Source: an uncultured Desulfocapsaceae bacterium (GTDB lineage: Bacteria; Desulfobacterota; Desulfobulbia; Desulfobulbales; Desulfocapsaceae). From it: a DNA stretch of 64,000 nt. Below, piece after piece: positions 27,557 to 33,870 of the stretch. Location of the stretch: the NCBI GenBank assembly GCA_964565605.1, contig CAZMFP010000014.1:9700-73699 (forward strand), read 5' to 3'. The position numbers and the translations under genes are program-made. Each line of letters starts with the position of its first letter. The stretch's first letter is position 1. The notes beneath the pieces were generated by a model. The model made no database searches and was not told the origin of the DNA. It was given only the letters and a program-made list of their open reading frames with translations.

Positions 27557-27658
27557 ATTTCTTTTTACTCTCTATATTCTCTCAAATCGGCACTAATTAG
27601 AATCAAAACCGCACTATTGCCATAGCAAAACCTTCCCAAATTTTCGCTTGGCATCCAA

Positions 27659-27687
27659 TTGACTACCAACATATAGTTGGTTATATT
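27659..27687 (+). promoter_or_regulatory. Candidate sigma70 promoter of the RiPP cassette, with a palindromic spacer
   Basis: TTGACT (27659-27664), a 17-nt spacer, then TATATT (27682-27687), about 65 nt upstream of ATG 27752. The spacer contains the palindrome ccaacatatagttgg. Confidence 0.4.
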
Positions 27688-30976: not shown

Positions 30977-32677
30977 TTGCCATCGGCATACTCTCCTTTA
31001 CTGAATATGTTATACAGTGATCATAGATCTGCTTTCCCGCAATACATCCTGCAATTGACGGGACAGCAATGGGCTATACAGGCCGGTAACACGGAAGCTA
31101 TCAACATCGTTAACGACTTTGCAAATGCCATGTCGTTATCCCTCGTCAACCAGGCAACTGATACGAAAGTACCTGAAGAAGCAACTTGGAGCAATTTAGT
31201 CGTTTTCATAAACCCTGCCGGCAAACGACTAACCGTTAATATTCATCAGTCCAAACCTCATATCTGCGTTCTTCCTTCACCAGACGATAATGAACTCTAT
31301 GCACTAGCCATGTCACATATTGGCCTGAGCATACTTCCTGTTGAATTAGAAAGAGGCGGAGTTCTGGTACATGGCGCCTTAGCTGAAGTCCCTGCTCATT
31401 ATGGTGGCGGAGGCATTTTACTTGCTGGCCCCGGCACTGTCGGAAAGACGACTGCCAGCAATAGACTACCTCCTCCCTGGAAATCATTGAGCGATGACGC
31501 TTCCCTGATATCGCCAGGTGATGACGGTCAATACTGGGTACACCCATGGCCCACCTGGAGCCGATTCAACGACTTACCTGATGGAACTCCTGGCTCTGGC
31601 GGCATCTGGGACACTCAATACAGGCTTCCGCTTCGAGCTGTTTTTTTTCTATCACAGGCAGAAGAAGATCGAATCAGCCCCATCACCCCAACATCCGCAA
31701 CTTCTTGCCTGATGGAAACAATCCAACATGTTTCAAAGCTTCTCACCCGCCAACTTCCTCTTGTGGATGCACAGCCTATTCACGAGAAAGAGCTCCTCAA
31801 CGCCTCAGAAATTATGCGTGTCACCCCTTCCTACAGGTTTGACATCAGCCGATCCAGGCCATTCTGGAAAAAGATAGAAGAACTATTCCGCACAACCCCA
31901 CCAACCATTCCTCATCAACCAAAACGTACCATACCCCTCACATCTTCATTGACAACAAAGAGCCAATTTTCTCAAAAACCTCTTTTTCGAGACGATACAA
32001 TAATAGTCAACTATTTTGGCAATAGTATGAGCCCGACACTGAACCACCCTGATTTACTCATTGTCTCATCTTATAAAGGACAAACCCTGAATGTTGGTGA
32101 TGTTATCTATTACCAGCCACCAGCAATCGAACCTAAAACCGTACATCGGATTATCGCCTCAATACCTGAAGGATTTGTTACCCGTGGTGATGGTAATAAC
32201 GCAAACGATGCCTACATACTGAACCGAAACGATATAATCGGCATTGTTACCGCTGCCAGGAGCTACAACAAACATCGTGTTGTTGCCGGGGGCAAGAAGG
32301 GACTCTTGATTGCTTATCGCTGCAGGTTTGCCAAATGGTTACATCACCAGCTCTCCTTTCTTCTGGGCGGAACTTACCGGCGACTTGTCTCTTCGGGCTT
32401 TTTTTATAATCGACTACCAGCATGGCTAAAACCGCAAATATTCGAATTTAAACGACAATTTTTACCTCCTATTCTCAAATTGATCATCAAAGGATATGTT
32501 ATCGGCCAATTCAATCCTCAGCAGAAAAATTGGCAACTCAATCGACTCTGGAAATTGCTCATTGACACATCAACTCTTCCTATTGCAAGAGACCTATCAT
32601 TCTTTTTCATTTCGTACCAGGATCTTGATCGCCATATCCTCAACCATTCATCGCCCCCACATGTGCCATATAAATAA
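30977..32677 (+). CDS. HPr-kinase-like (ScmC-like) P-loop domain fused to an S26B (SipW/archaeal-type) signal peptidase I domain
   Basis: The N-terminal half has GVLVHGALAE...GGGGILLAGPGTVGKTTAS, an HprK C-domain-like P-loop. The C-terminal half has FGNSMSPTLNHPDLLIV (Ser nucleophile box), VHRII (His box) and TRGDGNNANDAY (GDNN box). The start is either TTG 30977 or ATG 31007. Confidence 0.7.
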   Translation: MPSAYSPLLNMLYSDHRSAFPQYILQLTGQQWAIQAGNTEAINIVNDFANAMSLSLVNQATDTKVPEEATWSNLVVFINPAGKRLTVNIHQSKPHICVLPSPDDNELYALAMSHIGLSILPVELERGGVLVHGALAEVPAHYGGGGILLAGPGTVGKTTASNRLPPPWKSLSDDASLISPGDDGQYWVHPWPTWSRFNDLPDGTPGSGGIWDTQYRLPLRAVFFLSQAEEDRISPITPTSATSCLMETIQHVSKLLTRQLPLVDAQPIHEKELLNASEIMRVTPSYRFDISRSRPFWKKIEELFRTTPPTIPHQPKRTIPLTSSLTTKSQFSQKPLFRDDTIIVNYFGNSMSPTLNHPDLLIVSSYKGQTLNVGDVIYYQPPAIEPKTVHRIIASIPEGFVTRGDGNNANDAYILNRNDIIGIVTAARSYNKHRVVAGGKKGLLIAYRCRFAKWLHHQLSFLLGGTYRRLVSSGFFYNRLPAWLKPQIFEFKRQFLPPILKLIIKGYVIGQFNPQQKNWQLNRLWKLLIDTSTLPIARDLSFFFISYQDLDRHILNHSSPPHVPYK

Positions 32678-32952
32678 CCTAGAAGCACTTTTTGAACAGC
32701 AGCATCTCTCCTCCGATGGAGATGAAATTTTTTCCGGAAAAATGAAACGCTTTTCCGGAAATTTGAAATTGCGGTGCTTCACTCCTCAATCATCAAGACC
32801 AATCTATACAATATCAACCTGTTACCAACCAACAATCAAATCTATGGTTTGGCACGCATGTTGCAAAGAAAACAGTAAATACTTATATTCACATATACAG
32901 AATACGATATTTGCTCAATAGAAATACAAAAAGTGCAGAAGAGGAGATTGTT

Positions 32953-33870
32953 ATGAAATTAAAAATCAGATTGTTTTTCTTGCTGGCTAGTATAATGCTT
33001 TTCAGCGCAACAAATGTGTTAGCAGCCAGTTTTGTCATTAATGACAGATGGGATGAGGACGGTATCTATTGGGGTGGTCAAAATTATGATTTTGGAGGCA
33101 CTGGTTATAATCTGCCCTCAGGAGAAGATCTTGTTGGCCAGCCTGATGAGTTTGAAATTTCCCAAGTAAATGTAGACATCACAAACACGGAATTAGAAAT
33201 TGATGTGCACTCCGTCTTCATGAACTATATGGCAACTCACGATACCCCCGTTGAGTTTGGAGACATATTCCTTAGCAATGATGGCTGGAATCCAAACACA
33301 GCCGGTGTAAACTATCAGTATGATGTTCAAGGTTTTGGCGGAGAAGACTGGGAATATGTTTTGGTTTTTGATGACCATTCCCCAACCACCACTACCGGGA
33401 CATTTAACCTCTATGAAGTTGATGAAAGTAGAATCATTTACCCAGAGGACATCGCTGCTCTAGATCCTAGCTCAGTGCGCCATGGCCAAGAAGTTCTCTA
33501 TGATGCAACCGGGCAGGAAGTATTAAATCAAGGCTGGTACAGGGACTCCAATGGTAATTGGCAAAATGGCATTCTCTCGGGTACATGGGAATGGTTTAAT
33601 TGGGATACTCCAGATGCCAGTGACGATTTTGTAACCTTAACCATGAATTTGAATTTTTGGGTTCGTGACAGTAATTATCGGTGGAACAATGTTACTTGGG
33701 GTAACTTAGGACTCGTTGATGACATGGGTATACACATGGCGATGACATGCGCCAATGATGTTGTTGAAGGTGGCGATGAAATTCCCGAGCCAGCGACCAT
33801 GATGCTCTTTGGAACCGGACTTGCAGGACTAGCTGGCAGCGCCATTCGCAGAAGGAAAAAAAATAAGTAA
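32953..33870 (+). CDS. PEP-CTERM sorting-domain secreted protein
   Basis: A GAGGAG RBS precedes the start. The signal peptide is MKLKIRLFFLLASIMLFSATNVLAA. The C-terminus IPEPATMMLFGTGLAGLAGSAIRRRKKNK shows the PEP motif, a TM helix and an Arg-rich tail. Confidence 0.8.
   Translation: MKLKIRLFFLLASIMLFSATNVLAASFVINDRWDEDGIYWGGQNYDFGGTGYNLPSGEDLVGQPDEFEISQVNVDITNTELEIDVHSVFMNYMATHDTPVEFGDIFLSNDGWNPNTAGVNYQYDVQGFGGEDWEYVLVFDDHSPTTTTGTFNLYEVDESRIIYPEDIAALDPSSVRHGQEVLYDATGQEVLNQGWYRDSNGNWQNGILSGTWEWFNWDTPDASDDFVTLTMNLNFWVRDSNYRWNNVTWGNLGLVDDMGIHMAMTCANDVVEGGDEIPEPATMMLFGTGLAGLAGSAIRRRKKNK

Follow-up and report, generated by a model that had tools for sequence, protein, structure and literature searches.

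A ScmC–S26B peptidase fusion protein as a probable soluble maturation enzyme of a SynChlorMet-type peptide cassette

In a 64,000-nucleotide stretch of DNA from an uncultured Desulfocapsaceae bacterium (contig CAZMFP010000014.1 of GenBank assembly GCA_964565605.1; "the window" refers to this whole stretch), the gene at positions 30977–32677 joins a domain of the SynChlorMet cassette protein ScmC to an S26B-type peptidase domain and a conserved basic tail. We consider its product to be, rather probably, a soluble maturation enzyme with two functions that belongs to a SynChlorMet-type (Scm) pathway for peptides made by the ribosome and modified after translation (RiPPs) that relies on radical S-adenosylmethionine (rSAM) enzymes, in which a leader peptidase would be combined with an ATP module of the HPr kinase (HprK)/phosphoenolpyruvate carboxykinase (PEPCK) type. 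An earlier note on this DNA had read the gene as an HprK-like P-loop domain fused to a SipW/archaeal-type (S26B, Ser/His-type) signal peptidase domain within a RiPP cluster; both domain identifications are upheld by the analyses below, and several of the functional suggestions attached to them change.

The peptidase half scored 55.7 bits over amino acids (aa) 344–428 with the archaeal-type signal peptidase I model (TIGR02228 sigpep_I_arch; cut-off, 51.85) and was slightly sub-threshold with Pfam Peptidase_S26 (20.2 versus 22.9); split and reverse-order relatives, described below, reach only 35–44 bits with TIGR02228. A profile of our homologue alignment A1 searched against the PDB matched human SEC11C (7p2q; E = 4.5e-14) and SEC11A (E = 3.5e-12), with bacterial Lys-type signal peptidases trailing far behind (E = 1e-4 or worse), and the SEC11 alignment spans the GxSMxPT, VHRV and TxGDNNxxxD boxes. 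The window protein carries these as GNSMSPTL (aa 348–355), VHRII (aa 389–393) and GDGNNANDAY (aa 404–413), and S350, M351, G374–D375, H390–R391, G404–D405 and D411 are invariant in 33 homologues; S350, H390 and D411 occupy the catalytic Ser, His and Asp positions of the S26B boxes SM(x)PT, HR and GDNNxxxD. The spacing of +6 from the Asp of the GD pair to D411 equals that between D116 and D122 of SEC11A. Given the invariant boxes and this SEC11A-like spacing, the S26B Ser/His/Asp triad is intact.

The N-terminal half scored 132.7 bits with TIGR04249 ScmC (E = 1.6e-38, aa 87–302; curated equivalog cut-off, 125), a result repeated by a whole-genome search, so that domain scans of the kind proposed in the earlier note place both modules above curated NCBIfam cut-offs. 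The domain bears a P-loop (GGGGILLAGPGTVGKTTAS, aa 143–161), and its invariant residues comprise H132, K157 (Walker A), D173–D174 and the H189/P192-T193-W194-S195 motif; K157, D173 and D174 are unchanged in 33 homologues at 33–44% identity, and the HPWPTWS motif is invariant and specific to the ScmC family. AlphaFold2 gave a confident model of the domain (predicted local distance difference test (pLDDT), 89.1; predicted template modelling score (pTM), 0.88), and this model has the PEPCK-like P-loop fold: the top 50 Foldseek matches were all PEPCK, with E values down to 5.5e-8 and query-normalized template modelling scores of approximately 0.5. The full-length model (pLDDT, 81.3; pTM, 0.70) gave the same PEPCK picture. 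In sequence, the nearest relatives are different—a 35-sequence ScmC profile searched against the PDB had as its only meaningful matches the bifunctional HPr kinase/phosphorylase (HprK/P) structures 1ko7 (E = 0.0023), 1jb1/2qmh (E = 0.005) and 1knx (E = 0.14). In this alignment (lHGaLa...GviLaapggvGKtTAs...rslcDD versus ...HRLVADD), the positions of the His, the P-loop Lys and the Asp–Asp pair coincide, and the catalytic core of HprK/P (His, Walker-A GxGK(S/T) and Asp–Asp) is therefore recovered through the 1ko7/1jb1 match at E = 0.0023–0.005. Because Foldseek gives PEPCK only, the link to HprK rests on this profile–sequence match. HprK/P and PEPCK fall within a single superfamily of P-loop folds. 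Pfam Hpr_kinase_C (PF07475) does not match the window protein, which stays below the gathering threshold that delimits the HprK/P family (including TIGR00679), and no genuine HprK above cut-off was found in the organism's own genome and 20 relatives (21 genomes searched). The label "HprK-like P-loop" thus holds for the motifs and the superfamily, but the domain lies outside the HprK/P family itself.

The two catalytic domains are connected by a linker that is hydrophilic by hydropathy, has pLDDT values below 50 at aa 316–337 and corresponds to an unconserved, length-variable stretch of alignment A1. The peptidase is followed by a tail that consists of a predicted long helix and then a small four-stranded β-sheet, with an invariant Trp (W519) and 18 Lys/Arg against 3 Asp/Glu (aa 433–540). 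A hidden Markov model (HMM) of the tail always matched beside the S26 domain, in fused, reverse-order and split forms; the tail matches no family, and no NCBIfam model names the peptidase/tail part. It is possibly an accessory domain of the peptidase for contact with the peptide, a partner or, peripherally, the membrane. The maximum 19-residue Kyte–Doolittle mean of the entire protein is 1.2, and the hydropathy scan revealed no transmembrane segment, linker and tail included; the tail that the earlier note had called hydrophobic is instead this basic domain, conserved and approximately 100 aa long. In 71 related genes, over a region that opens 45 aa ahead of S26 and closes 25 aa beyond the tail, the maxima have a median of 0.99, and only three, all from Methanoregula, reach the transmembrane threshold of 1.6. 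A transmembrane tail or linker was rejected on the basis of the hydropathy of the window protein and these 71 homologues. In forms whose peptidase is N-terminal, the Ser box is the very beginning of the protein, and no anchor precedes it. The traits of S26B signal peptidases that concern location—a membrane anchor, a trans-side active site and a Sec signal-peptide substrate—were accordingly not recovered for the window protein. Since the P-loop requires cytoplasmic ATP and no membrane span lies between the halves, the peptidase should act in the cytoplasm, and the hydrophilic, disordered linker likewise suggests that the ATP domain and the peptidase reside on the same side. Given the lack of an anchor and of a signal-peptide substrate, we regard the domain as an S26B protease in chemistry and not as a signal peptidase in function, and the fusion protein looks soluble rather than export-coupled.

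The fusion gene is the final gene of a co-oriented cassette with the order PqqD, PqqD, ScmE, ScmF, precursor and fusion (Table 1), and hence has PqqD-like ScmD, ScmE and ScmF genes directly upstream, which is the genomic context of ScmC. The RiPP-cluster setting that had been proposed for the gene can therefore be specified as a SynChlorMet-type radical-SAM cassette that encodes a precursor with Cys repeats besides two PqqD proteins, ScmE and ScmF. The two PqqD genes overlap, and the top NCBIfam match of the first product is TIGR04248 ScmD, under its cut-off. For the ScmE-type protein, TIGR04250 is the top match, and Pfam Radical_SAM and SPASM match as well. Given that the ScmE and ScmF scores are both below the 400-bit equivalog cut-offs, the window cassette represents a sister subgroup. 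No transporter gene is present in the cassette, and it has no second protease besides the S26-like domain. The hairpin downstream of the fusion gene is probably the end of the operon. A promoter-like site at 32861–32889 precedes a PEP-CTERM gene (32911–33870), which is, considering this site and the hairpin, probably a separate transcript.

Table 1. Coordinates and supporting evidence for the fusion gene, its domains and the surrounding cassette
Feature	Position in the window	Strand	Evidence or remark
ScmC–S26B–tail fusion gene	30977..32677	+	566 aa from TTG; 556 aa from ATG 31007
ScmC domain, aa 20–305 (HprK/PEPCK-type P-loop module)	31034..31891	+	TIGR04249, invariant columns, AlphaFold2, Foldseek, HMM
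Disordered variable linker, aa 306–340	31892..31996	+	No hydrophobic segment
S26B-type peptidase domain, aa 341–431	31997..32269	+	TIGR02228, SEC11 alignment, invariant columns
Conserved basic tail domain, aa 433–536	32273..32584	+	Tail HMM, secondary structure, composition
Promoter-like sites, two overlapping −35/−10 matches	27648..27687	+	Consensus scan, 10/12 each; pattern match only
PqqD/ScmD-like peptide chaperone 1, 100 aa	27752..28054	+	Pfam PqqD, 37.4 bits
PqqD/ScmD-like peptide chaperone 2, 91 aa	28051..28326	+	Pfam PqqD, 36.4 bits
ScmE-type radical SAM/SPASM maturase, 378 aa	28330..29466	+	TIGR04250, 378.5 bits (cut-off 400)
ScmF-type radical SAM/SPASM maturase, 397 aa	29463..30656	+	TIGR04251, 335.1 bits, top match (cut-off 400)
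Precursor peptide, 67 aa	30683..30886	+	Leader ...AYVPPQVSKLDDMHAGAG, core YGCVPGSGGSLNCSNSGSNATNCIGSGSSADNSIG
Terminator-like hairpin and T-run	32703..32724	+	Pattern scan; 26 nt past the fusion-gene stop codon

The window precursor is rich in Gly, Ser, Asn and Cys, has a hydrophilic leader that is not signal-peptide-like and a junction of the form ...DDMH-AGAG-YG-C..., and is matched by no NCBIfam or Pfam model (no dedicated precursor model exists). Loci of the window type carry one to five small open reading frames (ORFs) between ScmF and the fusion gene, each of which has Y-x-(P/A)-P-x-x-x-(R/K)-L as its leader motif, a first Cys 18–20 residues past the Tyr, and a core of C-x-x-G-(S/N)-G-like repeats. 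In the clade with the reverse domain order, the precursor is located upstream of ScmD and has the motif KYE-x-P-x-x-V-P-L-G-E-x-A-K-G-S-G-x-C, followed by C-(T/S)-A-G repeats. In both clades, the leader motif stands in a fixed register and the leader closes with G-x-G, the first Cys coming one or two residues further on (in the reverse-order clade, 16 of 18 have Gly at −4 and 17 of 18 have it at −2). S26 peptidases prefer small residues at −3 and −1, and it is chiefly from the fit of G-x-G to this preference, an indirect line of argument, that the peptidase is taken to remove the leader at this site. A Methanothrix locus (L014:4997-7940) has an additional ScmF-like gene and five precursor genes that are paralogues of one another.

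To define how general the architecture is, we searched 5.8 billion proteins, which returned 318 relatives, dozens of them 500–585 aa in length with >90% query coverage and 34–46% identity; several are publicly annotated as "SynChlorMet cassette protein ScmC" or "signal peptidase I". In a genome scan with one genome per species, relatives occurred in 161 species-level genomes, and the best 80 loci were kept. These derive from bacteria (Thermodesulfobacteriota, Chloroflexota, WOR-3, KSB1, Bacteroidota, Bacillota, Elusimicrobiota, Verrucomicrobiota, Lentisphaerota, Planctomycetota and Acidobacteriota) and from methanogens (Methanoregulaceae and Methanotrichaceae), and the gene almost always lies directly after ScmD–ScmE–ScmF. 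HMMs for the ScmC, S26 and tail domains were built from alignment A1 and used to scan all ORFs of the 80 loci, yielding 74 ScmC-domain genes. Nearly half of these (35/74) are ScmC–S26–tail fusions in the window's order and 18/74 are reverse-order S26–tail–ScmC fusions; 14/74 have a separate S26–tail gene immediately upstream (13 genes) or downstream (1 gene), and 7/74 encode ScmC alone, four of which are cut by contig ends and three of which are apparently complete (L043, L050 and L068). The peptidase is thus fused to ScmC in either order or adjacent to it in 67 of the 74 genes. A fusion that had seemed unusual from the window alone is the standard architecture of its family, and the survey of ScmC homologues suggested at the time identifies pairing with an S26 peptidase as the family norm.

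In a quick maximum-likelihood analysis of the ScmC domain with IQ-TREE, the reverse-order and split forms fell into one clade of 35 rows (100% Shimodaira–Hasegawa-like approximate likelihood-ratio test (SH-aLRT) support), including four ScmC-alone rows, of which contig ends truncate three; the remaining 39 rows comprise 35 ScmC–S26 fusions and four ScmC-alone rows. The window's neighbours in the tree are a Desulfocapsaceae and a Desulfobulbus metagenome-assembled genome. Window-type loci usually have two PqqD genes, and reverse-order loci have one. Examples of this circularly permuted, reverse-order form include L037, L044, L048 (7812-9485), L051, L057, L061–L063 and L066 among the loci and P0052, P0061, P0065, P0088 and P0115 among the proteins. 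Triple fusions of ScmC, S26, tail and PqqD also exist (P0039, 621 aa; P0145, 631 aa; P0158, 674 aa), in which the leader-binding chaperone is physically tied to the kinase-like/peptidase protein. A profile search of 1.84 billion cluster representatives recovered 936 ScmC proteins at E ≤ 1e-30. Among the best 150 of these, there are 41 ScmC–S26–tail fusions, 2 reverse-order fusions, 2 fusions with an additional PqqD, 4 partial forms and 101 ScmC-only sequences (many of them fragments), with the S26 domain and/or the tail fused to ScmC in 47.

Additional copies and partial relatives were observed at several loci. One WOR-3 locus (L012:3553-9560) has two tandem ScmC–S26–tail genes, each behind its own precursors, and two others (L036:12264-13058 and L040:12167-13030) have an extra stand-alone S26–tail gene approximately 3 kb downstream of a full fusion; the contig of L036 also bears a stand-alone ScmC with its own precursors (L050). 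Genomes of the same genus as the window contain a second, weak ScmC/HprK-like ORF (351 aa and 337 aa) about 4–5 kb from the fused gene, with matches at G001:C4:8275-8547 and G002:C31:17175-17453; no such match was found near the window's cassette. In the organism's own genome, outside the window, two open frames of 325 and 164 aa (G000:C3:21209-21376 and G000:C59:15790-15945) match the P-loop part of Hpr_kinase_C weakly.

The reading frame itself is well supported. The motifs quoted in the earlier note are all present, and no stop codon interrupts the 566-aa ORF. The public gene call (P0001) is 556 aa in length and takes the ATG at 31007 as its start, where the longer ORF opens with the TTG at 30977; a Shine–Dalgarno sequence is not evident ahead of either codon, conservation among homologues in alignment A1 sets in only at around residue 20, and the ATG is the more likely start. 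An identical 556-aa product is on record for five contigs. Within the window's lineage, the cassette is confined to its own genus (3 of 31 related genomes), with stop-free frames of 532–571 aa; two same-genus genomes have frames of 540 and 532 aa.

These observations can be assembled into a maturation scheme. The two PqqD proteins would bind the Y-x-P-P...R-L leader of the 67-aa precursor, ScmE and ScmF would cross-link the Cys-repeat core, and the fusion protein would act on the same peptide afterwards or concurrently, in the cytoplasm. Leader removal would fall to its Ser350/His390/Asp411 domain, with the cut most likely at, or immediately beside, the conserved G-x-G ahead of the core's first Cys, possibly assisted by the basic tail of about 100 aa. 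The ScmC module would use ATP on the peptide, either for phosphotransfer to the Ser/Thr/Asn-rich core or for ATP-gated handling of the substrate, and export, if any, would be encoded outside the cassette. That the two activities share one substrate in one complex is strongly argued by fusion in both orders, the adjacency of the split forms and the occasional fusion to PqqD.

Several points weigh against this scheme. HprK is absent from the Foldseek top 50 of both the full-length and the domain model, which list PEPCK alone, and in sequence the link is weak, with Hpr_kinase_C matching 4 of 33 members (best E = 0.016) and a best PDB match of E = 0.0023. Protein or peptide kinase activity of the ScmC domain is accordingly only putative. 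Cleavage at G-x-G is deduced from the position of the motif alone, and G-S-G-like triplets also recur within the cores. The complete ScmC genes at L043, L050 and L068 have no peptidase nearby, indicating that the peptidase is not strictly obligatory. A literature search found no paper on SynChlorMet or ScmC, nor relevant work on S26 peptidases in RiPP pathways or on HPr kinase with SPASM proteins.

Alternative explanations were considered for the fusion, for its location and for each of its two activities. The existence of S26–tail and ScmC as split gene pairs in other genomes could suggest that the window gene is an assembly or frameshift artefact joining two neighbouring genes. In the split pairs, however, the two genes stand in inverted order, and the tree places them in another clade; moreover, the ScmC–S26–tail open frame is repeated in 35 loci from unrelated assemblies. 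The artefact is excluded by the stop-free frames of the same-genus genomes and the exact product on five contigs, leaving it a vanishingly small probability, and it was rejected given that the architecture is kept across independent assemblies and same-genus genomes. The coupled modification, cleavage and export that the earlier note had further suggested would correspond to a membrane-anchored SipW/archaeal-type signal peptidase fused to a kinase. Characterized S26B members (SipW, Sec11 and archaeal signal peptidase I) are indeed membrane enzymes, and the long helix of the tail reaches Kyte–Doolittle values of 1.6–1.85 in the three Methanoregula homologues, so that peripheral membrane association is possible. 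Yet the window protein never exceeds 1.2 and its homologues centre on 0.99, no N-terminal anchor precedes the Ser box with which the peptidase of the reverse-order and split forms opens, and the hydrophilic, disordered linker puts both domains on the cytoplasmic side; the precursor leader is charged and lacks a hydrophobic core, and the operon lacks a transporter. We consequently hold this model to be very unlikely. Of the proposed coupling, leader removal by the peptidase survives as the best-supported function, and export is left unsupported, given the absent transmembrane segment, the hydrophilic leader and the missing transporter.

As to what the two active sites do, the S26-like domain might cut elsewhere—excising units of a repeat core, processing itself within the linker or working as a LexA/S24-like self-cleaving switch—with an unlinked protease removing the leader. 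G-S-G and G-N-G triplets inside the cores, multi-repeat cores in several loci and weak Pfam Peptidase_S24 matches in 26 of 33 members are compatible with such a role, as are the split forms, which imply that the two halves can function as separate polypeptides. On the other hand, the catalytic base is the invariant S26B His and not the Lys of S24/LexA and bacterial S26A enzymes, the linker is unconserved without a fixed small-x-small site, the G-x-G at the leader–core boundary is the only position-fixed small-residue motif common to both precursor clades, and the cassette contains no other protease, all of which make cleavage elsewhere improbable. Rather than a kinase, the ScmC domain could in turn be a nucleotide-dependent scaffold or recognition module, or a phosphorylase or other transferase, with the task of offering the peptide to the peptidase or to the rSAM enzymes. 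Its fold resembles PEPCK, which performs small-molecule phosphotransfer, rather than protein kinases, its invariant HPWPTWS motif has no counterpart in HprK, and HprK/P itself is both a kinase and a phosphorylase. Catalysis is nevertheless favoured over mere binding, because the Walker-A Lys, the His and the Asp–Asp pair that match the catalytic residues of HprK/P are invariant over approximately 70 diverse sequences; in addition, the HprK homologues of lasso-peptide clusters are bona fide precursor kinases. We assign the non-kinase alternative a minor yet appreciable share of the probability, and retain a leader peptidase combined with an HprK/PEPCK-type ATP module as our reading of the protein.

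A broader proposal, which we advance tentatively and would not yet expect to hold, is that soluble tailed S26B-type peptidases constitute a distinct and so far unrecognized class of cytoplasmic RiPP leader peptidases, obligatorily partnered with an HprK-like ATP module (fused in either order, adjacent, or with PqqD fused on as well), in which leader removal would be gated by ATP or by phosphorylation of the cross-linked peptide. In a second, more distant type of cassette (L074:4552-9729, minus strand; also L019:3-3149, minus strand, and L008:6293-9540), a small S26B-like peptidase of 172–186 aa without the tail and two rSAM/SPASM enzymes are found together with an HprK-like protein approximately 331 aa long, which ScmC, HPr(Ser) kinase and HprK-related kinase B match weakly. 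Its occurrence suggests that the pairing of HprK-like and S26B proteins recurs outside the Scm family and that a kinase plus an S26 peptidase may form a general maturation module.

The architecture is already plentiful and named in public databases: many fused homologues bear the ScmC name in NCBI and JGI annotation, all homologues carry the precomputed Pfam tag PF27840, and the ScmC family is large and widespread in anaerobic bacteria and methanogens. The family is known bioinformatically only. The SynChlorMet cassette was defined by comparative genomics, and no product of it was found in the literature; the Scm system is not mentioned in PMC10288494 or PMC13692751, and PMC4289311 mentions HPr kinase solely in lasso clusters. 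The present analysis indicates that Scm cassettes have as a core, soluble component a protease of the S26B type whose triad is intact, and that the precursors all share a G-x-G junction. If this is correct, the RiPP leader peptidases would gain a protease type new to them, and ScmC a role; the result is a concrete, testable maturation scheme that alters no general principle.

Compared with known systems, the window protein agrees with ScmC (TIGR04249) in scoring above the equivalog cut-off and in its position after ScmD/ScmE/ScmF-type genes, and differs in that the 292-position model spans only its N-terminal half; its clade has two PqqD genes and a precursor leader unlike that of the reverse-order clade. 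With the S26B signal peptidases (SEC11A/C, archaeal signal peptidase I and Bacillus SipW; TIGR02228 and NF046067), it shares the Ser, His and GDNNxxxD boxes, in contrast to which it has no anchor, is fused to a cytoplasmic ATP-binding domain, carries an extra basic tail and has as its likely substrate a hydrophilic RiPP leader instead of a Sec signal peptide. The H-G-x-L...G-x-G-K-(T/S)...D-D core and the pairing with PqqD-type proteins are common to HprK/P and the RiPP-associated HprK-like kinases, with weak matches to the HprK-related kinase models TIGR04352 and TIGR04355; relative to HprK/P, the domain falls below the Hpr_kinase_C gathering score, has a fold nearer to PEPCK and possesses its own invariant HPWPTWS motif. 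The nickel superoxide dismutase maturation protease SodX (TIGR02754) is likewise a soluble S26-type enzyme that trims an N-terminal extension in the cytoplasm, a likeness of function with another substrate and another context; the match is weak (E = 2.4e-4; 21.5 versus a cut-off of 63.25 bits) and is stronger for the small S26 genes of L074 and L008. By analogy, SodX may be the closest functional counterpart of the peptidase half, and the lasso- and PqqD-associated HprK-like kinases that of the N-terminal half.

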